Assembly: GCA_017624285.1 (NCBI GenBank)
Contig: JAGANI010000033.1
Span: forward strand, 822 to 64,821
Reading direction: 5' to 3'
Length of the DNA: 64,000 nt
From: Clostridia bacterium
GTDB lineage: Bacteria; Bacillota; Clostridia; Christensenellales; Borkfalkiaceae
Numbering within the stretch: the first letter of the stretch is position 1; every line of letters begins with the position of its first letter. Below the pieces are notes generated by a model. It ran no database searches, had not been told where the DNA came from, and saw only the letters and a list, made by a program, of their open reading frames with translations. Positions 972 through 57,519 of this stretch are shown one piece after another. The position numbers were made by a program, and so were the translations under genes.

Positions 972-2315
972 ATGGAAAGTTACGAAATATTATGGAATAA
1001 CGCCCTTGTGGACTTGCAAAATACAATGCATCATACAGCGTATTCCACGTTTATAAAGTCGCTTACGGCTGTTGATTTAAAAAACGGTAAGGTTATTATT
1101 TGGTGTAAAACCAACCTTATTGCCGAAACCGTTAATAAAAAGTATGCGGATTATATTCGCGCTGCCGTGTCTAAAGCGTCTAACGGGGTAATTGCCGATT
1201 ACGAGCTTATCGTAGGTGCTGATAAAAGTACTGCTGGTAACCAAACTAAAAAATTTACGGAAAGCGCGCCTAGCGCTACTTTTACAGGTTCACCCGTAAA
1301 CCCTAAATTTACTTTTGATTCATTTGTCGTTGGTAGTTCTAACGAGCTTATTTACGCTGCGGCAAAATCCGTTGCAGAAAACCCTGGGGAATCTTTTAAC
1401 CCCCTATTTATTTACGGTGGCACGGGTTTAGGTAAAACGCATATACTTATGGCTATCGCTAACGAGCTTAAAATTAAACAGCCGTCTAAAACCGTTTTAT
1501 ACGCTACTTGCGAGCAGTTTACTAATCAGTTAATCGATTCTATAAGTAAAGGCAAAAACAATAGTGCGGAATTCCGTTCAACCTTTAGGGGCGTTGATAT
1601 ACTTTTAATTGACGATATACAATTTTTAAGTGGTAAGCAAAGCACCCAGTCGGAGTTTTTCCATACCTTTAACGAACTTATTATGCAAAATAAGCAAATC
1701 GTTTTGGCATCCGACCGTCCCCCGCACGAAATTGAAGTTTTAGAAGAACGTTTACGCACCCGTTTTGAAGGTGGTTTATTAGCAGACGTACAAAAACCAG
1801 ATATCGAAACGAGAATCGCTATATTAAAAAAGAAGGCTGAAGAAAAGAAGGTTATCGTAGATATTAAAGTGTTATCTTATATCGCTGAAAAGAGTGATGA
1901 AGATATCAGATCACTTATCGGTAAACTTACTAAGGTTATATTTGCATCACAATTACACGAAAAACCGATAAATATCGACCTTGTTAACGAAGCGTTAAAA
2001 GAAAGCGTTACCGATATACAAGAAGAAGTTAAGATTGACGATATAATTAGTTGCGTAGCAGATTTTTATAAAATTAAAAAGTCTGATATGCTTGGTAAAA
2101 AGAAGAATAAAGAGTTTGTTGAACCTAGACAAATTTGCATTTATTTAATAACTGAACTTTTAAATTTACCGTTAGTAACGATAGGTCAAAAAATGGGTGG
2201 TAGGGACCACGCAACGGTTATTTACGCAAGGGATAAGATTGCCGACTTATTAAAATTAGACATAACCTTAGCAACCCAAGTAAACGACCTTAAAAATTTA
2301 ATCCTTAAAAAATAA
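972..2315 (+). CDS. dnaA: Chromosomal replication initiator DnaA
   Basis: 447 aa. AAA+ Walker A GGTGLGKTHIL, Walker B LLIDDIQF, and a C-terminal DnaA-box-binding helix region (GGRDHATVIYA). RBS AAGAGGAAA upstream. Confidence 0.97.
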   Translation: MESYEILWNNALVDLQNTMHHTAYSTFIKSLTAVDLKNGKVIIWCKTNLIAETVNKKYADYIRAAVSKASNGVIADYELIVGADKSTAGNQTKKFTESAPSATFTGSPVNPKFTFDSFVVGSSNELIYAAAKSVAENPGESFNPLFIYGGTGLGKTHILMAIANELKIKQPSKTVLYATCEQFTNQLIDSISKGKNNSAEFRSTFRGVDILLIDDIQFLSGKQSTQSEFFHTFNELIMQNKQIVLASDRPPHEIEVLEERLRTRFEGGLLADVQKPDIETRIAILKKKAEEKKVIVDIKVLSYIAEKSDEDIRSLIGKLTKVIFASQLHEKPINIDLVNEALKESVTDIQEEVKIDDIISCVADFYKIKKSDMLGKKKNKEFVEPRQICIYLITELLNLPLVTIGQKMGGRDHATVIYARDKIADLLKLDITLATQVNDLKNLILKK

Positions 2316-2360
2316 TAAAAAACTAAAGTAAATAAAGCCAAATTTTTGGCTTTGACACGA

Positions 2361-2387
2361 AAAACCGCATACGTATGCGGTTTTTTT
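2361..2387 (+). terminator. Intrinsic terminator after dnaA, preceded by a second hairpin at 2334-2353
   Basis: aaaaCCGCATACGTATGCGGttttttt. An upstream hairpin AAAGCCAAAttTTTGGCTTT is also present. Confidence 0.7.
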
Positions 2388-2396
2388 GGAGATAGT

Positions 2397-4256
2397 ATGA
2401 ACAACACTTATATCGAAACAACTTGCGACGCCGTAGTAATAGGCGCAGGCCACGCCGGGTGTGAATCTGCCTTAGCGCTTGCCCGTCTTGGCTTTGATAC
2501 CGTTATGCTTACCTTAAATTTGGAAAGCATAGCCTTTATGGCGTGCAATCCGTCGATCGGTGGTACAGCAAAAGGTCATCTTGTAAGGGAAATTGACGCC
2601 TTAGGTGGCGAAATGGGTATAAACGCAGATAAGGCGTGTATGCAACTAAGGATGCTTAACCGTGGTAAAGGTTCAGCCGTGCAATCACTTAGGTCGCAAT
2701 CAGATAAACACTTATACCACGCTTTAATGAAAAAAACACTTGAGGAAACAAAAAACCTACGCATCTTACAAGGCGAAGCTGTTGAAATTTTAACTAAAGA
2801 CGGCGTAGTTACCGGCGTAAAAAACTCCTTTGGTGGCGTAATTAACTGTAAAACGGTAATTTTGGCGACGGGTGTTTACTTAAATGCGGAAATCACCGCG
2901 GGTGAGTGGCAAGCAAACCAAGGCCCTAACGGCTTTGCGCCCGCAAACGCGCTTACCAAAAATCTTATCGACTTAGGTTTTACCGTAAGGCGTTTTAAGA
3001 CTGGTACGCCTGCAAGGGTTGACGGCAAGACGGTTGATTATAGTAAGTGTGAAATTCAACCTGGCGAAACTGAAATTTACCCCTTTTCCTTTATGTCGGA
3101 TAATCCGCCGGAAAAACAAACGCCGTGCTATTTAACCTATACTAACGAAAAAACCCACCAAATTATTAGGGATAATTTAACCCGTTCCCCCCTATACTCC
3201 GGTTTAATAGTTGGTATCGGCCCGAGATACTGCCCGTCGATAGAAACTAAAATTATGCGCTTTGCCGATAAAGAGCGCCATCAAATATTTTTAGAACCAG
3301 AAGGTGGCTTAACTAACGAAGTTTACGTACAAGGTATGTCGACTTCACTCCCCCACGACGTTCAAAAAGCCATGTATAGGACTATACCGGGGCTTGAAAA
3401 TTGTGAAATTATGCGTTACGCCTACGCCATTGAGTACGACGCTATCGATAGTACCGAACTTAAACTTTCGTTAGAGTTTAAAAAGGTTGAAGGCTTGTTT
3501 TGCGCAGGTCAAATAAACGGCACGTCAGGGTATGAAGAAGCTGGCGCGCAAGGTCTTATTGCAGGTATAAACGCAGGCTTAAAAATGCAAGGTAAACCCC
3601 CTATTATATTAAAACGCGACCAGGCGTATATCGGCGTTTTGATTGACGACCTTGTTACCAAAGGCACGGACGAGCCTTATAGAATTATGACGTCACGCGC
3701 AGAACACAGGGTTTTACTCCGCCAAGATAACGCCGACGTAAGACTTACCGAGATAGGTAGAAGCGTTGGTTTAGTTACCGACGAGCGTTACGACAGATTT
3801 TTAAAACGCATAGAAAATTACGAAAAGGCTAAAGTAGAAGCTGAAGTAGTGCGTTCACCCAAAGACGTGGAAGAATTCGTTTGCAGTTACGGTTTTAACA
3901 CGCTTAACGGCGGGTTAAGTTATAAAGATATGGTAAAACGCGGTATACCGATTAAAGATATACGCAAACGCTTTGACGCATTTAAGGGCTTAAGAGAAGA
4001 TACCCTTGAAATGCTTGAAACCGACTATAAGTACGAAGGCTACTTAAAAAAGGGTTTGGAGCAGATTGAACGCGCCAAAAAGATGGAAGAAAAGGTTTTA
4101 CCAAAGGATATAGATTACCTTAAAATTGACGGTCTTAGGCTTGAAGCAAGGGAAGCTTTAGATAAAATCCGTCCCGAAAACTTAGGTCAAGCCGGCAGAA
4201 TTTACGGCGTAAATCCAGCCGACGTCGCCGTCTTAATGGTGTATCTTAAAAAATAA
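2397..4256 (+). CDS. mnmG: tRNA uridine 5-carboxymethylaminomethyl modification enzyme MnmG (GidA)
   Basis: FAD motif [12 protein letters not shown], GidA signatures ([28 protein letters not shown]). I moved the start to ATG 2397 (GGAG 6 nt upstream) because the track start 2346 lies inside the dnaA terminator. Confidence 0.95.
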
Positions 4257-4259
4257 TAA

Positions 4260-4709
4260 GTCATTCTGAGCAAAACTTTTGTTTTGCGTGAGAATCCCCT
4301 GTACTCTCTTGTCATTCTGAGCGTAGCGCGAGAATCCCCCACCTTAGAAAATTGAAAAAGGGAGATTGTCACGCTCGTTATACTCGCTCACAATGACGGT
4401 AATTAGTGGAGATTATCACGTCGCTATCACTCCTCATAATGGCAGCAAAACAATTGTCATTCTAAGCGTAGCGTAAGAATCCCCTGTACTCTCTTGTCAT
4501 TCTGAGCGTAGCGTGAGAATCCCCCACCTTAGAAAATTACAAAAACGGAGATTGCCACGCTCGTTATACTCGCTCACAATGACGGTAATTAGTGGAAATT
4601 ATCACGTCGCTAACGCTCCTCACAATGACAGGTTTGTTTTATTGTCATTCTGAGCGTAGCGTGAGAATCCCCCACCTTAGAGAATTGAAAATGGGAGATT
4701 GCCACGCTC
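4260..4709. repeat. REP-like nested-palindrome repeat cluster 1 (about 10 units, both orientations)
   Basis: Units are GTCATTCTGAGC-(4-16 nt)-CGTGAGAATCCCC. The inverted variant is GGAGATTGTCACG-(loop)-CTCACAATGAC. Conserved linkers (ccttagaaaattacaaaaa, ctgtactctctt) join the units. There is a higher-order repeat of about 185-196 bp (4311.. vs 4496..). The cluster starts 4 nt after the mnmG stop. Confidence 0.9.
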
Positions 4710-4814
4710 CCACTTGCTTACAGTTTGGTAATGCACGCAACAGGCGTTTGCCAAAGCATCTTGCGTGATACCAGCCTGCTTTCTTAAATTTTTAAGGTTT
4801 TTATTAAAAGCCAT
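4677..4814 (-). pseudogene. Truncated XRE-family helix-turn-helix gene (45 codons) ending inside the repeat cluster
   Basis: Own translation: MAFNKNLKNLRKQAGITQDALANACCVHYQTVSKWERGNLPFSIL*. This is the typical HTH_3 N-terminus up to the WERG motif. The codons from ERGNLP onward are repeat-unit sequence (GAGCGTGGCAATCTCC). Confidence 0.5.
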
Positions 4815-5022: not shown

Positions 5023-5367
5023 AAAGTCGGTTGTGTAATCGCGGGAACGCTATTAAAGGCGTTAATGAGGAAAGTCCGAGCATCGTAGAGCAGGGCGCCG
5101 GAGAAATCCCGGTGGGGGTGACCCTAAGGAAAGTGCAACAGAAATATACCGCCATTTATTTGGTAAGGATGGAAAGGCGAGGTAAGAGCTCACCGTCCCT
5201 ACGGTAACGCAGGGAGCCATGTAAACCCCGTCCGATGCAAGATTGACAAAATACCCACGTGGGTTGCTCGCCCGGGTATTTTATTAAAACATCGCTGGAG
5301 GCATACGGAGACGTTTGTCGTAGATAAATGATTACACTAGACAGAACTCGGCTTATAGACCGACTTT
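5023..5367 (+). ncRNA. rnpB: RNase P RNA
   Basis: Conserved P4 strands GAGGAAAGTCCGAGC (5') and ACAGAACTCGGCTTAT (3'), internal GGTAAGAGCTCACC. The P1 pairing is AAAGTCGGT (5023) with ACCGACTTT (5359-5367). The overlapping + ORF 4765-5088 is spurious. Confidence 0.9.
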
Positions 5368-5395
5368 GCGGTTGGAGTTATCCAACCGCTTTTTT
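5368..5395 (+). terminator. Intrinsic terminator of rnpB
   Basis: GCGGTTGGAgttaTCCAACCGC followed by TTTTTT. Confidence 0.8.
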
Positions 5396-24626: not shown

Positions 24627-25730
24627 ATGAAATTAATCTGTAACGGTCTTGATTTATCAAGTGCGGTATTAACCGTATCAAAAGCGGTTTCATCAAAAAC
24701 CACCAACCCTATTTTAGAAGGTATTCATCTTAAATGTGTTGGGGACAATCTTGTTTTAACTGCTACCGATACTGAACTCACTATTGAAAAGACTATTAAA
24801 GCAGACGTTTTAATGGAAGGTGAAACTGTTGTTACTGGTAGGATTTTTGGCGATTTCGTTAAAAAATTGGAAAGTGAACAAGTTGAGCTTTCTAAATTAG
24901 ATGGTAACGAGTTAACTATTAGATATTCTGATTCAAACTCTAAAATGCAAGTTTTCCCTGCGGAAGAGTTTCCTAAAATTAATAAAGATATTAACGAAAA
25001 TTATTTTGAATTAAAGCAATCCGACTTTAAATCTATTGTCGAAAAGACTGTTTTTGCCTGCGCTACAGATGAAAGTAGACCTATTTTAAAAGGTTGCTTA
25101 TTTGAAATTGAAGATGGTATTTTAACAGCAGTTGCTCTTGATGGTTTTAGGATGAGCGTTGTTGAAAAGGAAGTTTTATCGGGTAGTGGTAATTTTAAAG
25201 CAATCGTGCCGGCAAGGACTCTTAACGAAATAACCCGTCTATTAGAAAAAGATGAAGATTTATTAAAAGTAAGCGTTCAAAAAAATAGTTTAATGGTTTC
25301 AATAGGTTCAACGGTATTAATTTCTAGACTTATTGAAGGGGAATTTATTAAATATAAACAAATTTTACCCACAAACTTTATAACTAACGTTAGGATAAAT
25401 AAGCAACTTTTAATAAATTCAATTGAAAGGGCTAGCGTAGTTGCTAAATCCGATAAGTTAAATATTATTAGATTTGACGTCAAGGAAGAATTTTTAAATA
25501 TCTCTTCTAAATCAGAAATCGGTTACGTTAACGAAAATATCGCTATTAATATGGATGGTAAAGACGTAATTATTGCTTTTAACGGTAAGTATTTATTAGA
25601 TTATCTTAAAACTACTGATGAAGAATTTATTTCAATGAACTTAAATTCACCCATTGATCCTTGCGTTATGAAACCATTAATTAATACGGATTATACTTAT
25701 TTATTAGTTCCTGTAAGGATTAACGGTTAA
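24627..25730 (+). CDS. dnaN: DNA polymerase III beta sliding clamp
   Basis: 367 aa. Typical N-terminus MKLICNGLDLSSAVLTVSKAVSSKTTNPILEGIHL and three-domain length. RBS AGGAG upstream. Confidence 0.95.
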   Translation: MKLICNGLDLSSAVLTVSKAVSSKTTNPILEGIHLKCVGDNLVLTATDTELTIEKTIKADVLMEGETVVTGRIFGDFVKKLESEQVELSKLDGNELTIRYSDSNSKMQVFPAEEFPKINKDINENYFELKQSDFKSIVEKTVFACATDESRPILKGCLFEIEDGILTAVALDGFRMSVVEKEVLSGSGNFKAIVPARTLNEITRLLEKDEDLLKVSVQKNSLMVSIGSTVLISRLIEGEFIKYKQILPTNFITNVRINKQLLINSIERASVVAKSDKLNIIRFDVKEEFLNISSKSEIGYVNENIAINMDGKDVIIAFNGKYLLDYLKTTDEEFISMNLNSPIDPCVMKPLINTDYTYLLVPVRING

Positions 25731-31926: not shown

Positions 31927-32137
31927 TAAAAAAATGCGGTTGGGGAAGCCCAAAACCGCAACTAAAAGCGACTTTTGATAGCACCCCACTAAACATAGTG
32001 ACAGTCCAAAGCATATTATGCCTTGCCCCAACGCGTAGCCCTTACGGACGGGGTACGCATTTCGGCGATTTTAACGTTCTTACGTAAGCAATACCGTGTA
32101 ACTAACGTAATACTCTTATCAATCGCGCCTCTATCGA
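31927..32137 (-). promoter_or_regulatory. Lysine riboswitch (L-box) with terminator expression platform, leader of dapA-dapB-lysA
   Basis: The minus strand reads ...AGAGGCGCgattgataagAGTA...GCCGAAat...cgtTGGgg...ggaCTGTCActat...agTGGggtGCTAtc. The terminator GCGGTTTTGGGcttcCCCAACCGC + ATTTTTTT (31927-31960) follows. Confidence 0.85.
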
Positions 32138-32416
32138 TATTAAAAGTTTAGCACACACGTTATTTTATGTCAACTGTTTTTTAAAAGTAACTTATTTTAG
32201 TTGTAATCTTTAAAAAAACGTGAAATTTTATTGTATTTTATCTAAAAAGATCTAAAAAGTTTAGTATTTTTTCCGTTAAAAACGTTATTTTTGAAGATAA
32301 TATTTTTACTTTTTTAATATGGCATAATTATTTGTAATAATTAAAAATTGTAATAAAAAGCAGTTTTAAAGCAAAACTAAAAAGCAATTTTGTTATAGTT
32401 TAAGACAAAATTGTTA

Positions 32417-38214: not shown

Positions 38215-38240
38215 ATTGCCTTTATCACAAAAAATAATAT

Positions 38241-38440
38241 GTCATTCTGAGCAAAACCTGTTTTGCGTGAGAATCTCCTACATTAGAAAATTATACAGGG
38301 GATTATTACGTCGCTATCGCTCCTCATAATGACGGTAAAAACGGGGGGATTATCACGTCGCTAACGCTCCTCATAATGACGTAACACGCTTGTCATTCTG
38401 AGAAAGCCTTTTGGCTTTCGTGAGAATCTCCTACCATAGA
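38241..38440. repeat. REP-like nested-palindrome repeat cluster 2 (4 units)
   Basis: Same family as 4260-4709: GTCATTCTGAGCaaaacctgttttGCGTGAGAATCTCC, then two inverted GGGGATTAT(T/C)ACGTCGCT..CTCCTCATAATGAC units, then GTCATTCTGAGaaagccttttggctttCGTGAGAATCTCC. Confidence 0.9.
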
Positions 38441-38677
38441 AATAAATTAGCTATTTTTATCAAGGTGATGCCTTACGCGATAAGCTCTTATCTAAAAAGG
38501 GAAAATGTAAAAATTCCCTACAAAACCATATTAAAAAAGTAAAAATTTAGCATTGAAAGACTTTTTTAAGTTTGCTATAATTAAAATGCAAGGTGTGCTA
38601 TTGAGGTAAAAAAGCAAAAATCGCTAAAAAATGGTAATTTTAATAGAATTTTGTATATTAAAAAATCAAAAAGGGTC

Positions 38678-49950: not shown

Positions 49951-49982
49951 AAGACGCTACTTTTTTGGTGGCGTCTTTTTTT
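49951..49982 (+). terminator. Intrinsic terminator after module 3 (a paralogous copy lies at 57414-57449)
   Basis: AAGACGCtacttttttggtgGCGTCTT followed by TTTTTT. Confidence 0.7.
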
Positions 49983-50007
49983 GCATGATTTTTTAGTATT
50001 AACAAAA

Positions 50008-50530
50008 GGGGATTGTCACGCTCGTTGTTACTTCTCACAATTACGGGTAGATACGTGGGGGAGGCACTCTCGTTGTTACTTCTCACAATGACAAAAAATA
50101 ATATGTCATTCTGAGCAAAACTTCTGTTTTGCGTGAGAATCCCCTACCTTAGAAAATTACAAAACGGGGGATTGTCACGCTTACGCTCACAATGACAGCA
50201 ACACAATTGTCATTCCGAGCAAAACTTCTGTTTTGCGTGAGAATCCCCTACATTAGAAAATTATACAGGGGATTGTTACGCTCGTTGTTACTTTTCACAA
50301 TGGCAGGATTATTTTTATTGTCATTCTGAGAAAGCCTTTTGGCTTTCGTAAGAATCCCCTGTACTCTCTTGTCATTCTGAGTAGGACTTTTGTCCTACGT
50401 GAGAATCTCCTACCTTAGAAAATTACAAAAAGGGAGATTGTCACGTCGCTGACGCTCCTCACAATGACGTAAACAAATGGTGGCATCCTAAGTAAACTTC
50501 GTTTGCGTGAGAATCCCCTATCATAGAAAG
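50008..50530. repeat. REP-like nested-palindrome repeat cluster 3 (about 10 units)
   Basis: Same GTCATTCTGAG...GAGAATCCCC / GGGATTGTCACG...CACAATGAC family. It shares linkers with cluster 1 (ctgtactctctt, ccttagaaaattacaaaa) and cluster 2 (ctacattagaaaattatacagggg). Confidence 0.9.
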
Positions 50531-50566
50531 TAATTAGTCATTTTTAGTAATGCAACGCCTTTCGCA

Positions 50567-50576
50567 CCCCCCCCCC
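50567..50576. repeat. C10 homopolymer, inverted partner of the G10 tract at 50651-50660
   Basis: ttcgcaCCCCCCCCCCaccataat. It lies 74 nt upstream of the G10 tract, and the flanks are partly complementary (ATAAT/ATTAT, AGTGG/CCACT). Confidence 0.9.
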
Positions 50577-50635
50577 ACCATAATAAACGCAGTGGGCTAC
50601 AATTTAATAATGGATTAAAATAGTTTTAAAACCAC

Positions 50636-50666
50636 TTGACAAAAATTATTGGGGGGGGGGTATACT
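50636..50666 (+). promoter_or_regulatory. Candidate promoter with a G10 tract inside the -35/-10 spacer (possible slipped-strand phase switch)
   Basis: TTGACA (50636-50641), then the 19-nt spacer aaaattattGGGGGGGGGG, then TATACT (50661-50666). It points toward module 4. Losing two G would give the optimal 17-nt spacer. Confidence 0.4.
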
Positions 50667-50830
50667 AATTGTATAAACTGTAAAGTTGCCTTTTTGCATA
50701 AAAATTTTCTTAAAATGTATAAAATTTAAAAAATCACTATTATTTTTTAAAAAATAGCAAGATTTACCATTTTTTTCATTATATAATGTGATTAGAAGTT
50801 GCATAAACATTGTTTTTTTTAATTTTGCTA

Positions 50831-50859
50831 TTGACAAAATATAAATTATAATTTATATT
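50831..50859 (+). promoter_or_regulatory. Second candidate promoter upstream of module 4
   Basis: TTGACA, a 17-nt spacer, then TATATT, about 300 nt upstream of the 51161 start. Confidence 0.35.
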
Positions 50860-51160
50860 ATTATTGTACAATAGGGGAGTATCCCACTAAAAAACGGTTC
50901 TATTTGGCACAAATATAACTACTTTTAGGCAAATGTGGATTATTTTACAACCCAAAAAAGAATTATTTTACAATTAAATGCACTATTTTTTTTGTAAAAT
51001 AAAATTACTGGGCGGTTTCTGGGTAAAAACCAGCGCCAAAAACGCTATACGCGTTAATTAAATAGTTATTATACGCTTATGCACGTGTGCCAACTTTTGG
51101 GAGTAAGTTGTGTGGACGTGTTTTGGAGCGTTAAATATAAATAATAACAAGGAGAGATTT

Positions 51161-53446
51161 ATGAGAAAGTTATTTACAATGATTCTTGCAGGGTTAATGC
51201 TTTTCACTGTAGTACTTACTGGCTGTAAACCTGAAGAAGGTCAAGTTAACAGCGGCGTAAGTGGCTTTGGCGCAAGCATTTACTCACAAGCAACCGGTGG
51301 CACTGATCAAAGCGTACACGGCGTAACGGCTGATGGCAGACCCACCGCAACACTTGTAGAAGGCGTTCATTACAGTGATGAAATCGGCGTATACGATGAA
51401 GACAACAAGCGCGAAAGCATTGAAGTCTATAATAAAGACATCTTCTATCGTAACGATACTTGGTTCACTTGTGCTGACCCTGCTACTTTTAGATGTGAGG
51501 ACGAAACCGATCCTGAAAACTACGGTAAGTTTTTTATGTACGGTACAACAGGCGTAGGTATTTACAACTGTTTCGTTTCAGACGACTTAGTTAGTTGGAA
51601 GCCTAGGGCTGCAGCATACGTATGTCCTCTTGACGGTTGGGAAGGCTTAGATACTTGGGCGCCCGAAGTTATTTGGGATAAAAACGCTGATAGAGCATCT
51701 TACGGCTTAAATCCTGAAGATAAGGGTACTGGCGTATACTTTATTTTCTATACCGCAGGTCCTTCACAAAAATATTACTATCAAACTGATACAACTCGTA
51801 ACTTAGAGTTAGGTTTAGCAGTATCAACTAGCCCCTGTGGTCCTTTCCAAATGTGGAATGGTGTAGAAAAGGGCGCAACTATTGCCGGCGTTAACTACGG
51901 CACTGCTGAAGGTTATCAAAAATATACCACTTATAAAGATAAAGATTTAGCTGAAGTTCCCGAACACGGCAGACGTAATAATGAAGTTACCAACGACGAT
52001 ATTTGGTTTAACGTTCCCGCAGTTCGTGCATCGCTTGATTTCCAATTCAAAAACAAGGATAAAGCAGGCAACTGGGTAGATCCCGATGGCAATATCGTTG
52101 ATCCCGACCAAGTTGATAATGCAACCTATATTTATCCTAACGCAAAACATATGCCCGCAAACGACTCTCATTCGGGTATGGTTAACCTTGACGCTAACCC
52201 CTTTGTAGATCCACAAACTGGTGAATATTATATGTATTTCTCACGTGGTCAAAGTGGTCCTATAACTTCATATCAAGATGAAAAAGGCACTATTTATGCA
52301 GGTCAAACTATTTACGTTGTTAAGATGATTGATAGGGACTGGTCACAAGTTGATTATTCTTCCGTAAATATGATCGTTCGTCCACACTTATCTTTCGTTT
52401 CTCAAGCAGCGTGTGACGATTATTACGAACAAGCTAAAAACTTCGACAATACTCCTTATAAAATTAAAGTTGACGAAGTTAAAGGCGCAACCGAAAACCC
52501 CTTTACTTGGGATTTTGTAAACTCCGATACTTGTGCAAGTAAAATTAACGAAGGCCCACATATGTACTATAATGCTGATTGTGGTCTTTACTACTTATCC
52601 TTCTCCGCAGGTAACTACGGCGTTAACACTTACGCTTCTAACTTAGTAGTAGGTTATAGCCCGATGGGTCCGTTCAGAAAGTTAACTTATGAAGAAGGCG
52701 GCGCAATGCTTACCGTTGACCTTGGTAGAACCAGCGACGTTATGAGCGGTGTTGGTCACCACTCTTTCGTAACCGTTGGTGATGAACTTATCATTAACTA
52801 CCACCGTCAATTAGACCCCAAAGGTAACTACCACAACCGTGGTCCTGCTATCGATAGGGTACAATGGGTACTTAACGAAAACGGTTTACCAGTTATGTAC
52901 ACTAACGGTCCTTCTAACACGATACAACCTATCGTTTACGGCACAGGTCAAACTAAGTACGATATCATCTCTGACGAAGCAACCGTTTCCGCTATAGGCA
53001 ATGCAACTTATAACGATTTAAGTTTATTAAACGATGGTCTTATTAGGGTTCACCCGTCTGGCGACTTAATCGGTCCTTTCGTAAAAGATTTCGAGTTTAA
53101 TGGTAGCGAACTTACTTTAGTATTCAACTTTGGTGAATACCGTGATATCGCTGCAATAATGGTATATCAAAACAGTGTTTGGGAATACACCTTTAACGAT
53201 GTTGCTAAGATCGAAATGGACGTATTAAAAGACGGCATTGACGGCGTATTTATTATTGAAAACTTAAAATACGACTGGGATATGGGTGAACAAGTTGATG
53301 CAGGCAACATGCGTCCCGCAACTAGCGCAAACGCTGTGTTTGAAGAAGTTAAATGTAAAGAAGTTCGTGTTACGGTAAAAGCACCGTATGCAGATCCCGT
53401 TCGTATACCTGAAATTTACATTTTAGGCGTACCTAAAAATGCGTAA
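51161..53446 (+). CDS. Surface lipoprotein, module 4 head (761 aa): GH43-like propeller + discoidin-like domain
   Basis: Start set to ATG 51161 (AAGGAGAG upstream). Signal peptide MRKLFTMILAGLMLFTVVLTGC. Motifs CADPATFRC, MYGTT, TWAPE, LDANPFVDP, NEGPHMYY, GVGHHSF. It ends ...IYILGVPKNA* like module 3. Confidence 0.85.
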   Translation: MRKLFTMILAGLMLFTVVLTGCKPEEGQVNSGVSGFGASIYSQATGGTDQSVHGVTADGRPTATLVEGVHYSDEIGVYDEDNKRESIEVYNKDIFYRNDTWFTCADPATFRCEDETDPENYGKFFMYGTTGVGIYNCFVSDDLVSWKPRAAAYVCPLDGWEGLDTWAPEVIWDKNADRASYGLNPEDKGTGVYFIFYTAGPSQKYYYQTDTTRNLELGLAVSTSPCGPFQMWNGVEKGATIAGVNYGTAEGYQKYTTYKDKDLAEVPEHGRRNNEVTNDDIWFNVPAVRASLDFQFKNKDKAGNWVDPDGNIVDPDQVDNATYIYPNAKHMPANDSHSGMVNLDANPFVDPQTGEYYMYFSRGQSGPITSYQDEKGTIYAGQTIYVVKMIDRDWSQVDYSSVNMIVRPHLSFVSQAACDDYYEQAKNFDNTPYKIKVDEVKGATENPFTWDFVNSDTCASKINEGPHMYYNADCGLYYLSFSAGNYGVNTYASNLVVGYSPMGPFRKLTYEEGGAMLTVDLGRTSDVMSGVGHHSFVTVGDELIINYHRQLDPKGNYHNRGPAIDRVQWVLNENGLPVMYTNGPSNTIQPIVYGTGQTKYDIISDEATVSAIGNATYNDLSLLNDGLIRVHPSGDLIGPFVKDFEFNGSELTLVFNFGEYRDIAAIMVYQNSVWEYTFNDVAKIEMDVLKDGIDGVFIIENLKYDWDMGEQVDAGNMRPATSANAVFEEVKCKEVRVTVKAPYADPVRIPEIYILGVPKNA

Positions 53447-53460
53447 GGAGGTAAATTAAT

Positions 53461-56400
53461 ATGAAAAAATTATTTAAAGTTTTACTTCTTGCACTTTTAG
53501 TAGTAGTTTCAGCTATCGGCGTTATGGCTTGCAATAACAAAAACAACGATGGCGGCGGCGGTGGTGGTACACCCCCCACACCCACAACACCTATCTATCC
53601 CGATCAATACCATGACGAATCCCGTGATCCTGACTTTAATGTATACAACGGCATCACGCTTGACGGTGTAATGTCTGATGGCGAGTGGGATAACTATAAC
53701 GTTTACGAAACTGAAATTAGCCTCGGTGGTGTTGACCACGACGTTATTTGGTGTTCAACCTTCTCTAACGAAGGCGCGGTTTTCGCTATTCAAGTAGAAG
53801 GTACTCCCGTTTATTACAACATTAATAGGAGTATGACGGAAAACTCCGGTATCGAAATTTACGTTGCCCCTGGTGGCACTACCGACGTTATGGGTAAGGC
53901 TTGGCAGATGGAAATTATGCCTAACGGCATTTACCAAACCCACTTATGGCATAGTTTTGGCGGTCATAACGGTTACCGTACTGCAAACGCATATCTTGAA
54001 GTAGAAGGCACTGTTTTAGGTGCTCCGTTAAACGATCCTAACAGTACTGGTTACGTTATCGAGTGGATGATCCCTTGGAGCGTTTTCGGTTACAATTCTA
54101 ACCAAAAGCCCTCTCATATCAATATGGACGTAGCGTTCCTTTATTGCTCAACCTTTAACGGTCCTCGTGACGCTTGGGTTTCTATGCGTCAAACCAAAGA
54201 AAATAAAATTTACTCTTGGACTAATCCTTCGTCCTGGTATACTCTTACCGAATTTGGTTTCTATAATGAAGACGGCGATATCTTATCCGTTATCAACGAC
54301 GGTGAAGAAGTTGTAAACGGTACTGTTGAAGTATCGGGTACATTTAAAGAAGGTGGCGCAGTAGTAATTACCCCTGATGATGGTTACGTATTAAAATCAC
54401 TCGTTATCAATGGTAAAAAAGTTAACTCTTTATACTACTCAATGGCTCCTGCAAGTGAAAGGGTATTATACATCGACGTAGAATTTAAACCTGCTATAGG
54501 TAACCCCGTTGACTTTAACGTTGTAGGCGGTTACGTTTATACCGAAAAGGTAAATCTTGGCAAAAATATATCATTTGCGCTCACTAATGAGGCTGGCGAA
54601 GTATTCGTTGGTCTTACTGATGACGACGGCGTGGCTACCGTTTACGTTCCCGATGGCGAATATGCTTATTCAATGGACGGTTACACGGGTGGTACGGTTA
54701 CGGTAAACTCTGCAGATAACGTAGCGTACGATTTAACCTTCACTAAGATTGGTATTTCTGCTGATGGTAAAGGCGCAACTATTTCTGGTCTTGATTCTAC
54801 CGATGGCGTTACCATTATCGGTACGCCTAGCAGCACTCTCCGTATGCTCAACGGTTTCGGTTCTAACTCTAGCGTTGACTTTAATGGTAAAGTAGTAGTT
54901 GAATACGATTACGAAGTAGAATTAGGTCAAAAGACTTGTACCTTCCTTAGATGGTTAACCACTGCTGATACCTTCTATAACAACCAAGTTGCTTGGGTTG
55001 GTGCTAACTATATCGATCTTAAACAAAAGGAAACGATCGTTACGAGAGTTCCTGGTGATCCCGACGGTATTGCAAGGGTACATATCGTTTACGTTATCGA
55101 AGACAACACGGCTACGTGTTTCTTAAAGACTACCGACGGTTACGAGTTATTATTTACCAACGTTGCAGCTGGCAAAATCACTGGTTACTATTTAGAATCC
55201 GTTGAAAACGAAACTTACTACGCATATAAAAACTTCAAAGTTTACGACGGCGTATTTGCAAATCAAATTGCAAAAGCACCTTTAACGGTTTCTTCCACTG
55301 GTGAAAGTTCTGTAGAATTTAACAAGCCTCAAGCATCTTTAGGTGATCTTATCACGGTTACCGTTACACCTAATGAAGCAACAGAAGGTAAAAACGTCGT
55401 TACTTCGGTTAAAATCAATAACGAAGACGTTGATTACGTTGTAAATGCTGACGGCACTATCGTTGCTGAGTTCAGACACAACGGCAATATTCCTGCGTAC
55501 GACGTTGCAGTTACTACCGCTAACGTTAACCCTGTAGAAGTTGACTTATCTATTAAGATTACCGATATTAAAGATAATCTTTTCGCTTTAGCTAATAAAG
55601 ATTTCAAGGTAAGTGGCGTTTTAACTGCTTTTGGTACAACCGATGCTGATGGTAATGCAACTCTCGAACTCGTTGACGGTTCATACATTATCGAAGTTGA
55701 CGGCTACCTTAAATCTACCTTTGTGGTAGCAGACGGCGCGCTTACTACCGATAATATCTTAATTGCTGAAAATATCTTCATTGAAACCGATAAGTTTGAC
55801 TACGGCTTCAATACTGCTGAAGGTTACTGGTTTACTTCTTATCAAAGTGTAAATAAGTTATACTTTATTGATGACAGGATTGCTGAAGGCGACGTTATTA
55901 GTTTTACCTATACTGGTAAAGTAAAACAAGGCGCTAACCACTACCCAGAAATTCAAGTATTTGATAACAACGGTAACTCTATCTGCTTACAACTTTCACA
56001 ATGGAACGGCACACTCAATCTTAAAGACGTTGCTGCCAAAACAGTTTACGCTATTGCTAATGACGTAGAGTCTTACACGGCAAATTTATGTCTCGTATTA
56101 ACTAACGGCGTTATCGAAGTTTACTTTGCAGACGGTACTTATATTACCGCGATAAAAGGTGTTCGTTCTTCCAGCGGCAATGATGGCGCATCGTTTGGCG
56201 ACTTTGCTTCCTTCCATTGGCATTTCGAAACCGATAACCCAGCACCTGGTAACTGGAAGATTTCTAACTTCAAGGTATTAAGGGCTGCTGCGGTTGATAC
56301 CATTATCAATGCTGAAACCGCTGACGTAGTTATTAAAAACGCTAAGGGCGATACTTTAAATGCTATACCTTTTGCATTAGACGTTAAGATTTACGTAACA

Positions 56401-57378
56401 CCTACTGCTGGTAATTACTTAAAGTCTATTAAGGTTAACGGCGTAGTTCAAGCGATCTCTTACGAAGACGACAAAGCTTACGTTGCTTTAAAGTATCAAT
56501 CTCTTGACCCCGTTACTATCGAAGTTATCACTACTGATACTGAAATTATAACTAAATCCGTAGCGCTTTCCTTAAGCCACAAGTTTGCTTACGCTAGCGC
56601 TTCTGCTTTAGCAAACGGTACTGCAGTTAAATTAGTTGGTGAAGATTCCGCTATCACGCTTAACGTTACCGATGGTAAGATTAACGCAACCTTACCGGTT
56701 GGCAGTTATCAAGTTGTTGTTGATTACCACGCTCCGTACACCTTAGTTATTGATGACTCCACTTCTAGTGAGTTAGACGTAGTATTATTACGTAAAGTAA
56801 TTACTCACTACGGTGATTATAGCTCTTATATAACTAACGACGGTACTGATGGTACTAACGGCGCATCAATCGTTGCTCCTGGTGGTACTCAGTTTATCAG
56901 ACAGTACTTCTACTTTGCTGAAAGCGTTGACTTTAACCAAGCAAACATTGTCGAATACAACCTTACTATGGATACTTCTTGTCAAGTATTTAGTGGTTTA
57001 TTCTATCGTGGTGGCGATAAGTTGTCAGTTGACGGTTTCTATACTTACTTCAACCAAGGTTGTTGGAAATCAAGCGTAATCTGGTTACGTAAACAAGATG
57101 CAAGCGATAGTCAATATACCGCAAACGCTGATAACGCTAATATGAACGGTTCTTTACTTACCGTTAAAGTAGTTGTTGTTACCTCCGGTAATGAGATTAA
57201 GTATTACGTTATTGATAAAGAGGGTAGCGTTAATTTAGTTCACACTAGCGAAAAGCCGACCGTGACACACGTTATGACTAAGATTGACGATTGTACCGGT
57301 ACGTTAAAGTGGGAAAACATCAAAGTTTACGACGGTGCTGACGTAGCAACCAGACTTACCGAACTTGGCATTAACTAA
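53461..57378 (+). CDS. Surface lipoprotein, module 4 tail (1305 aa): CBM9/DOMON-like + Ig-like + extra ConA/LamG-like modules
   Basis: Starts 14 nt after the head gene, with AGGAGG upstream. Signal peptide MKKLFKVLLLALLVVVSAIGVMAC and a G/P/T linker, then DGVMSDGEWD...GYVIEWMIPW. The C-terminus ...KWENIKVYDGADVATRLTELGIN matches the module 3 tail. Confidence 0.85.
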   Translation: MKKLFKVLLLALLVVVSAIGVMACNNKNNDGGGGGGTPPTPTTPIYPDQYHDESRDPDFNVYNGITLDGVMSDGEWDNYNVYETEISLGGVDHDVIWCSTFSNEGAVFAIQVEGTPVYYNINRSMTENSGIEIYVAPGGTTDVMGKAWQMEIMPNGIYQTHLWHSFGGHNGYRTANAYLEVEGTVLGAPLNDPNSTGYVIEWMIPWSVFGYNSNQKPSHINMDVAFLYCSTFNGPRDAWVSMRQTKENKIYSWTNPSSWYTLTEFGFYNEDGDILSVINDGEEVVNGTVEVSGTFKEGGAVVITPDDGYVLKSLVINGKKVNSLYYSMAPASERVLYIDVEFKPAIGNPVDFNVVGGYVYTEKVNLGKNISFALTNEAGEVFVGLTDDDGVATVYVPDGEYAYSMDGYTGGTVTVNSADNVAYDLTFTKIGISADGKGATISGLDSTDGVTIIGTPSSTLRMLNGFGSNSSVDFNGKVVVEYDYEVELGQKTCTFLRWLTTADTFYNNQVAWVGANYIDLKQKETIVTRVPGDPDGIARVHIVYVIEDNTATCFLKTTDGYELLFTNVAAGKITGYYLESVENETYYAYKNFKVYDGVFANQIAKAPLTVSSTGESSVEFNKPQASLGDLITVTVTPNEATEGKNVVTSVKINNEDVDYVVNADGTIVAEFRHNGNIPAYDVAVTTANVNPVEVDLSIKITDIKDNLFALANKDFKVSGVLTAFGTTDADGNATLELVDGSYIIEVDGYLKSTFVVADGALTTDNILIAENIFIETDKFDYGFNTAEGYWFTSYQSVNKLYFIDDRIAEGDVISFTYTGKVKQGANHYPEIQVFDNNGNSICLQLSQWNGTLNLKDVAAKTVYAIANDVESYTANLCLVLTNGVIEVYFADGTYITAIKGVRSSSGNDGASFGDFASFHWHFETDNPAPGNWKISNFKVLRAAAVDTIINAETADVVIKNAKGDTLNAIPFALDVKIYVTPTAGNYLKSIKVNGVVQAISYEDDKAYVALKYQSLDPVTIEVITTDTEIITKSVALSLSHKFAYASASALANGTAVKLVGEDSAITLNVTDGKINATLPVGSYQVVVDYHAPYTLVIDDSTSSELDVVLLRKVITHYGDYSSYITNDGTDGTNGASIVAPGGTQFIRQYFYFAESVDFNQANIVEYNLTMDTSCQVFSGLFYRGGDKLSVDGFYTYFNQGCWKSSVIWLRKQDASDSQYTANADNANMNGSLLTVKVVVVTSGNEIKYYVIDKEGSVNLVHTSEKPTVTHVMTKIDDCTGTLKWENIKVYDGADVATRLTELGIN

Positions 57379-57413: not shown

Positions 57414-57449
57414 AAAGACGCTACCTTTTGGTGGCGTCTTATTTTTTTT
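57414..57449 (+). terminator. Intrinsic terminator after module 4
   Basis: AAAGACGCTACCttttGGTGGCGTCTT followed by ATTTTTTTT. Confidence 0.75.
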
Positions 57450-57499: not shown

Positions 57500-57519
57500 A
57501 GTAAAAAAGGGGGGGACGT

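Follow-up and report, generated by a model that had tools for sequence, protein, structure and literature searches.

Slippage-prone C10 and G10 tracts between a REP-like repeat cluster and the conserved regulatory region of a lipoprotein gene module in an uncultured Clostridia bacterium

Results

The stretch of DNA analyzed here (64 kb, called the window) comes from a short-read metagenome-assembled genome (MAG) of an uncultured Clostridia bacterium. It represents the replication-origin region, in which dnaA, mnmG, rnpB, ftsH, parAB, rsmG, dnaN, yidC and jag come before four tandem modules of large lipoprotein genes (32554-57378). Apart from the repeat units, which alternate in orientation, all features below are given on the forward strand. 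Module 4 (51161-57378) encodes a 761-aa GH43-like lipoprotein and a 1305-aa lipoprotein. The 761-aa protein is 100% identical to MBO5285912.1 (J6B16_03335) and its homologues carry PF04616 (GH43), while the 755-aa protein of module 3 also matches GH43. A lipobox was found in 6/6 module proteins, with the motifs LTGC and VMAC in module 4, and the lipobox cysteine in both module 4 proteins agrees with the earlier note on this DNA, in which a promoter was said to face lipoprotein genes. With these predicted lipoprotein signal peptides, the module 4 products are expected to be exposed on the cell surface.

The spacer between module 3 and module 4 is 1,243 nt long. It opens with the intrinsic terminator of the module 3 operon (49951-49985), an 11-pair stem followed by a T run, which is conserved in three comparison loci (L001, L006 and L007) with T runs of different length. 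The terminator is followed by clustered palindromic units that alternate in orientation (50003-50531), with the forms GTCATTCTGAG..CGTGAGAATCCCCT and AGGGGATTGTCACGC..CTCACAATGACA and with C4-5 and G4-5 blocks on either side of an AT-rich spacer. Against an expectation of 1.9, the window has 22 copies of their 14-mer core, distributed over three intergenic clusters, of which the other two lie at about 4249-4712 and 38237-38432. These units are short imperfect palindromes with many intergenic copies, alternating orientation and a copy number that varies between strains, and they are thus REP/BIME-like. A scan of JGI metagenomes with the repeat-core pattern gave no match. The cluster is closed by a conserved 44-nt tail (50522-50565), identical without gaps at 33/44 positions to 38434-38477, where the module 2 upstream cluster ends, a score reached by 0/500 shuffles.

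The C10 tract (50567-50576) starts 2 nt after this tail and is followed by a unique inner segment of 74 nt (50577-50650) and by the G10 tract (50651-50660). Both tracts were read directly from the sequence at the coordinates given in the earlier note. They are the only G or C runs of at least 8 nt in the 64 kb, the longest runs after them being G7 (57509) and C7 (21751). A first-order model predicts 0.011 (G) and 0.004 (C) runs of at least 10 nt, so two such runs within 100 nt are far beyond chance. The regions upstream of modules 1-3 hold no G/C run of at least 7 nt, and the claim that such tracts are missing there was thus correct. Both tracts are real, slippage-prone simple sequence and non-random, and the pair sits between the variable REP-like cluster and a conserved regulatory region. 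That both arms measure exactly 10 nt is odd for neutral drift and counts against an account by simple sequence.

The conserved regulatory region contains an operator-like block, TAAAAAATCACTATT..TTTAAAAAAT (50724-50752), which is conserved across species. An exact 15-mer core of the block is found in a distant relative with about 47% protein identity (L013), and the block aligns with an orthologous locus (L004). The motif AAAAAATCAC occurs five times in the window against 0.63 expected, also upstream of module 3. The block looks like a conserved operator, and we regard it as a putative binding site for a classical regulator. It lies between the G10 tract with its proposed promoter and a second, canonical promoter about 170 nt further downstream, TTGACA-17-TATATT (50831-50859; hexamers 11/12), which is likely the main promoter of module 4. 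This second promoter had been pointed out in the earlier note, and it is identical in L001, L002 and L008. Related sequences precede module 1 (TTGAAA-17-TATATT), module 2 (TTGAAA-17-TATAAT and TTGAAT-17-TAATAT) and module 3 (TTGAAA-17-TATTAT), and a canonical promoter type with a 17-nt spacer is predicted to be common to all four lipoprotein modules. Downstream of the module 4 promoter, a 5' leader of about 300 nt (50866-51160) has a predicted structure of -74.8 kcal/mol (z = -3.1), with 0/100 shuffles as stable. A search of the intergenic region against Rfam gave nothing, either with gathering thresholds or with E-values relaxed to 1.

The earlier note had placed a distal promoter across the G tract, and its elements are all found in the sequence. 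TTGACA (50636-50641) and TATACT (50661-50666) are separated by 19 nt, composed of aaaattatt and G10. Among dinucleotide shuffles of the 1.24-kb intergenic region, 11.5% have one or more hexamer pairs with at least 11/12 matches and a spacer of 15-20 nt, and the pair taken alone is only mildly unexpected. Promoters of the sigma-70/sigma-A type work best with spacers of 17 +/- 1 nt, and because of this optimum we expect only weak activity from a promoter with a 19-nt spacer. Both hexamers might also have other origins. The sequence around the proposed -35, CACTTGACAAAAATTATT, is similar to the repeat-end motif CACAATGACAAAAAATAAT at 50084-50102, and TTGACA itself appears to be a version of the repeat end CACAATGACA with one or two bases changed. 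The proposed -10 falls within a 15-nt palindrome, TATAC-TAATT-GTATA (50661-50675), and makes up its left half; the palindrome appears as a stem in both RNA and DNA fold predictions and, together with TATACT, is conserved in L001 and L006. TTGACA-19-TATACT is therefore most likely a fortuitous juxtaposition. Against this account, the hexamers are very good (11/12) and the tract is placed exactly as a spacer switch would need, and a G8 tract would bring the hexamers to the consensus 17-nt spacing upstream of genes for surface lipoproteins.

Other readings of the tracts were rejected. Small ORFs (22-63 aa) starting in or near the tracts were dismissed, as they have neither a ribosome-binding site nor conservation. 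A sigma-54 promoter was rejected by eye, since GG-N10-GC is not present in register. A C-rich -35 element of a sigma-I promoter was rejected because the C10 context departs from the published consensus, ACCCCC--AA N15 CGAA or CCCYYAAA N13-14 CGWA (PMC4711584): the sequence after C10, ACCATAATAAACGCA, lacks an AA/AAA in register and shows CGCA where CGWA is expected.

The locus was compared with ENA contigs recovered by exact protein look-up, and two lineages cover the tract site: the window and a sister strain, which is present in two independent samples and assemblies (L001/L005, ERZ28593575; L006, ERZ27317653). The names of the ENA assembly records (XIEF21, TONG22, LIUQ22) suggest that they stem from ruminant-gut studies. 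Identity between the sister strain and the window is 98-99% for proteins and about 98% for nucleotides, but the intergenic region of the sister strain measures 752 nt against 1,243 nt. It is without about 460 nt of repeat units, the tail, the C10 tract, the 74-nt segment and TTGACA, and homology restarts at about 50637-50652, that is at the G tract, to continue at 95-98% from there to the gene. In both samples the sister sequence reads ...CTCACAATGACGAG-A8-G9-TATACTAATTG (in another excerpt GCTCACAATGACGAG-A8-G9-TATACTAATTGTATAAACTG), with A8G9 directly 5' of the same TATACT. The position of the -35 is occupied by ATGACG (4/6 match), a genuine repeat end, again 19 nt from TATACT (ag + A8 + G9).

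The G tract is thus real, heritable and different in length between lineages, with G10 in the window and G9 in L001/L005 and L006. The C10 arm (missing from L001, L005 and L006), the hairpin that it would form and the perfect -35 are strain-specific. Since the C10 arm and the 74 nt are confined to this strain, the pairing of the two inverted tracts, and with it the hairpin, arose recently and in this lineage only. As an origin of the sister haplotype, a simple deletion that joins repeat ends was rejected, because about 5 of the 10-11 nt immediately left of the G tract are different.

The comparison among related genomes that the earlier note called for therefore finds the G tract in the sister strain, as G9, and C10 and TTGACA in the window only. 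It finds no such tract in more distant loci. The orthologous locus L004 (81% protein identity) has neither repeat cluster nor G tract, and L013, in which three modules lie beside an AraC-family regulator, has no G/C run of at least 7 nt. Three further contigs (L007, L008 and L009) end before the tract, and assemblies of other samples have contig breaks 50-125 nt downstream of it. Only two lineages are comparable at the site, so arguments from conservation are weak. P0003 and P0004 were set aside as comparators: they are orthologues of module 3, not module 4, and their upstream regions are therefore not comparable. Exact look-ups of the 761-aa protein of the window and its NCBI twin (P0035) returned no contig, and an exact scan for the conserved 25-mer to the right of the G tract found no copy in GTDB species genomes or JGI metagenome contigs. 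A protein-profile scan of GTDB genomes gave no relative, and blastn of the intergenic region against plasmids gave no match.

The window derives from a MAG, and the earlier note had warned that the tracts could be sequencing or assembly artefacts. The source could be poly-G dark-cycle reads or a chimeric join in a short-read assembly, and the presence of C10 and the inner segment in this assembly only, as well as the contig breaks of other samples next to the tract, would fit such an origin. However, a G9 tract was recovered at this position from two samples, independent of one another and assembled with different assemblers, which speaks against the caveat for the G tract, while C10 comes from a single assembly. 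Dark-cycle poly-G gives long 3' tails and not internal 10-mers. Moreover, uniquely flanked tracts of 10 nt are shorter than any de Bruijn k-mer and so should have been spanned by real reads. We consider an artefact highly improbable, although the reported tract length may carry an error of +/-1.

The 13 kb that could be aligned between the two lineages show whether the G10/G9 difference stands out. Non-coding indels are almost all in homopolymers, and from the window to the sister strain they include T7 to T5 (49976), A6 to A5 (50889), T8 to T7 (57442) and G7 to G8 (57509). The last of these is a second polymorphic G tract (57509-57515), situated in the ribosome-binding site of an epimerase gene, with G7 in the window and G8 in L001 and L002. 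Since other homopolymers also vary by 1-2 nt, G10/G9 represents ordinary homopolymer instability and is not evidence of selection for switching. The polymorphism demonstrates that the tract is unstable, but not that the instability is used. Loss of one or two G had been proposed to move the spacer from 19 to 17 nt. The observed lengths do not show this shift: the pairs are TTGACA-19 and ATGACG-19, so the change in length brings the spacer no closer to 17 nt, and the two lineages do not straddle the optimum of 16-18 nt.

The C10 and G10 tracts form part of inverted arms (50569-50584 and 50645-50660) of 16 nt that are 88% complementary. They are predicted to form a stem-loop of about 94-96 nt with a G:C-rich base of 12 bp (A-C10-A/T-G10-T) and two more helices (ATAAT/ATTAT and AGTGG/CCACT). 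Its folding energy is -38.4 kcal/mol as RNA (z = -2.9; 1/200 shuffles as stable) and -19.5 kcal/mol as DNA (z = -2.2). The hairpin described in the earlier note, including its complementary flanks, thus folds as predicted, but it is absent from the sister strain. Since the sister strain lacks the C10 arm and the perfect -35 as well as this hairpin, none of the three is a conserved part of any device.

A stem-loop or cruciform of this kind could act as a barrier or insulator, or as a slippage or recombination hotspot that bounds rearrangements of the cluster. Such a role would agree with the stability of the predicted hairpin, which 1/200 shuffles equal, and with the break in homology between strains, which coincides with the G tract. 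However, the C10 arm is missing in the sister strain and the structure is therefore not conserved, a good intrinsic terminator ends the upstream operon 600 nt earlier, and the z-score of the DNA fold is modest (-2.2), with no covariation to assess. We regard a structural role as very unlikely.

The arms might instead belong to a miniature invertible element (inverton) that flips the 74-nt segment, and with it the -35, away from a fixed -10. The inverted arms of 16 nt and 88% complementarity, and the position of the -35 inside the segment with the -10 outside it, are what such an element would show. However, known invertible promoters are roughly 150-800 bp long and 74 bp is far below this range. 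Pfam scans of window ORFs of at least 120 aa detected no tyrosine or serine recombinase, and there is no recombinase or invertase gene among the window ORFs, although an enzyme encoded elsewhere in the genome might act in trans. The opposite orientation was seen in no assembly, and in L001 and L006 the segment is absent and not inverted. Among all the explanations considered here, we find inversion the hardest to believe.

The relation of the tracts to the repeats is less clear-cut. The flanks of the tracts resemble the edges of the repeat-unit spacers, and for the right flank the similarity to the repeat family is borderline (p = 0.035). Neither the repeat clusters (p = 0.94) nor the module 2 region (p = 0.19) resemble the inner 74 nt. 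The likeness of the flanks to the repeat family, suggested by sequence, is thus not statistically secure, and an origin of the entire C10-N74-G10 block as an expanded pair of repeats found no statistical support for the inner segment. A MITE was rejected, as the flanks (gca / tat) show no direct duplication. No second copy of the block was found in the window, the fetched loci or viral contigs, and the inner segment has no exact match in IMG/VR viral contigs.

Discussion

Taken together, the explanation that we lean towards is that C10 and G10 are a hypermutable tract pair bordering a REP-like cluster, and that any effect they have on a weak distal promoter would be no more than accessory. The two tracts would be slippage-prone sequence at the promoter-proximal edge of a rapidly rearranging repeat cluster. 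The G tract would be the older of the two, being common to the sister strain at another length, and C10 and the 74 nt would have been added in this strain only. With a -35 that is probably a variant of the repeat end (CACAATGACA) and a -10 that is half of a palindrome, the apparent promoter would have arisen by chance juxtaposition. Transcription of module 4 would start mainly from the conserved promoter at 50831-50859, which is probably controlled through the operator-like block at 50724-50752. The G tract would change in length through slipped-strand mispairing, as in any G9-G10 run. Tracts of G9 or G8 could then activate a secondary, unregulated promoter that adds to the main output, which would not amount to an on/off switch of the operon.

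The earlier note had proposed a slipped-strand phase-variation switch, in which gain or loss of G shifts the spacer between 19 nt (off), 18 nt and 17 nt (on). Part of the population would in that case make the module 4 lipoproteins from a strong distal promoter that works independently of the regulated proximal one. Several observations are in line with this proposal. The geometry is right and the hexamers match at 11/12 positions, the G tract is kept beside a conserved TATACT in three assemblies with lengths that differ between lineages, and the genes downstream encode lipoproteins. In addition, G9-G10 tracts are intrinsically hypermutable, as is established for contingency loci. On the other hand, the -35 is not conserved, with ATGACG in its place in the sister strain, both lineages have a 19-nt spacer and neither consensus sequence is thus in an "on" state, and the change from G10 to G9 is no larger than changes at other homopolymers. 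A conserved canonical promoter and an operator-like block lie downstream, the tract is missing from the 81% orthologue and the distant relatives examined, and the paralogous modules are without any such device. What stands of the proposal is an unstable G tract at a conserved -10-like hexamer. The -35 and the C10 arm lack conservation, the spacing is the same in both lineages, and the canonical promoter lies nearer the gene. A phase-variation switch is thus possible but unsupported, and we consider it unlikely.

A related scenario joins the repeats to switching. The end of a REP cluster might have supplied both the -35 (CACAATGACA) and the hypermutable G block, and in some strains of a ruminant-gut Clostridia species this would have created a repeat-derived, slipped-strand contingency promoter layered over the regulator-controlled promoter of the GH43-like surface lipoprotein operon. 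We find this decidedly unlikely. If true, it would be a case of REP elements seeding a switch, and to our knowledge spacer-length phase variation of carbohydrate-active surface enzymes in a commensal Firmicute is undescribed.

Phase variation through the promoter spacer is known from poly-G in porA and poly-C in opc of Neisseria meningitidis, TA repeats in hifA/B of Haemophilus influenzae, poly-A in vlp of Mycoplasma hyorhinis and poly-C in fim of Bordetella pertussis. As in these systems, the homopolymer studied here lies between -35-like and -10-like hexamers in front of surface lipoprotein genes and varies between strains, and the spacing would become optimal with the loss of one or two G. 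Unlike them, the -35 is unconserved in the sister strain and both lineages have a spacer of 19 nt. The conserved canonical promoter and the operator downstream mean that the tract does not gate the only promoter. The host is also different, an uncultured gut Clostridia commensal and not a host-adapted pathogen.

The intergenic poly-G contingency tracts of Campylobacter jejuni and Helicobacter pylori offer a second comparison. The locus shares with them G9-G10 tracts in an AT-rich genome, lengths that vary by +/-1 nt among close strains, and another G tract nearby, in a ribosome-binding site. However, these species have dozens of tracts, mostly in coding sequence, and are without full mismatch repair, while here there are two tracts of at least 8 nt in 64 kb, both at one locus.

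Two further kinds of elements are similar in part. In E. coli fimS, the polysaccharide promoters of Bacteroides and cwpV/flgB of Clostridioides difficile, inverted repeats flank a partial promoter upstream of surface-protein genes, as they do here. In contrast to these switches, the segment measures 74 nt, no recombinase gene is nearby, no alternative orientation was seen, and the arms are homopolymers that do not resemble recombinase cores. In common with REP/BIME clusters, the tracts end an array of short, imperfect, alternating palindromes, and such arrays recur in several intergenic regions with a strain-variable copy number. They differ from these clusters in that the inner 74 nt show no detectable similarity to the units and that 10-nt homopolymers are found in no other unit.

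Conclusion

A near-consensus promoter match that contains a homopolymer is insufficient for calling a switch. The locus also holds a caution for MAG-based scans, as two lineages are available at the site and contigs of other samples break beside it. Slipped-strand switching of expression has been documented mainly in host-adapted pathogens. If the G tract does toggle the distal promoter, an uncultured gut Clostridia would diversify a pair of surface glycoside-hydrolase lipoproteins through slipped-strand mispairing. As it stands, the locus shows how REP-like clusters and homopolymers lead to fast intergenic evolution between strains that are 98% identical.

Candidate regulatory elements upstream of module 4

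The tract of ten G residues upstream of module 4 (G10, 50651-50660) is directly followed by a perfect 15-nt palindrome, TATAC-TAATT-GTATA (50661-50675). As the left half of this palindrome is the proposed -10 hexamer, the sequence could equally be a protein-binding site.

Further downstream, we found a conserved operator-like block, TAAAAAATCACTATT..TTTAAAAAAT, at 50724-50752, at about 795-828 in the orthologous locus L004 and at 4680-4710 in L013, a distant relative with three modules. Its two half-sites are of the A6T type, with a distance of about 21 nt between them. The block is kept upstream of lipoprotein modules across organisms whose proteins are only about 47% identical, and in L013 it adjoins a gene for an AraC-family regulator. 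Additionally, a TATAAT/TATTAT hexamer begins exactly 42 nt past the shared 15-mer in both the window and L013. This constant distance points to an additional promoter near 50782-50787 that would depend on an activator.

The leader of about 300 nt that runs from the likely main promoter to the start codon of module 4 (50866-51160) is near-identical in L001, a contig of the sister strain, and in L002 and L008, two further contigs matching this region. It has a strong predicted structure (z = -3.1), with none of 100 shuffles being equally stable, and no match in Rfam. The leader may be a cis-regulatory RNA.

Genomic setting of the modules

The four tandem paralogous modules (32554-57378) encode very large lipoproteins of 1861, 1856, 755 + 963 and 761 + 1305 aa, most of which match nothing in Pfam beyond GH43 and a weak signal resembling InlB B-repeats. 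The terminators 3' of module 3 (49951-49985) and module 4 (57416-57449) are near-duplicates. On the other side, the regulatory region of module 1 is directly abutted by a lysine riboswitch on the minus strand (31971-32141), upstream of an operon of the dapA-dapB-lysA type.

Clusters of REP-like palindromic units in alternating orientation are located after stop codons at 4249-4712, 38237-38432 and 50003-50531. The units are built as GTCATTCTGAG-hairpin-CGTGAGAATCCCCT, with the inverse form AGGGGATTGTCACGC...CTCACAATGACA, and a conserved 44-nt tail closes two of the clusters. Their copy number varies, and strains that are 98% identical differ by about 460 nt in this respect. An exact search of JGI metagenome contigs with a 24-nt core pattern gave no hit.

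The gene order of the origin region is unusual for a Firmicute: mnmG (gidA) directly follows dnaA (972-4256), and dnaN (24627-25730) lies about 22 kb away, beyond stretches of very high AT content (GC 0.25-0.30) around 14-17 kb and 24-26 kb. A class A RNase P RNA is encoded on the plus strand at 5023-5371.

Contig breaks and a second G tract

Contigs from three other samples break off 50-150 nt past the G tract; in window coordinates, L002 starts at 50784, L008 starts at 50712 and L006, from the sister strain, ends at about 50807. These breaks, which may be due to strain heterogeneity or to the repeat cluster, restrict the number of comparable strains.

A second polymorphic G tract is found at 57509-57515 (11534-11541 in L001), reading A6G7 in the window and A6G8 in L001 and L002. 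This tract is the ribosome-binding site of an NAD-dependent epimerase gene, 4 nt 5' of the ATG, and because a canonical TTGACA-17-TAAAAT promoter lies immediately 5' of it, the epimerase leader is very short. The length of the tract could affect translation initiation of the epimerase.
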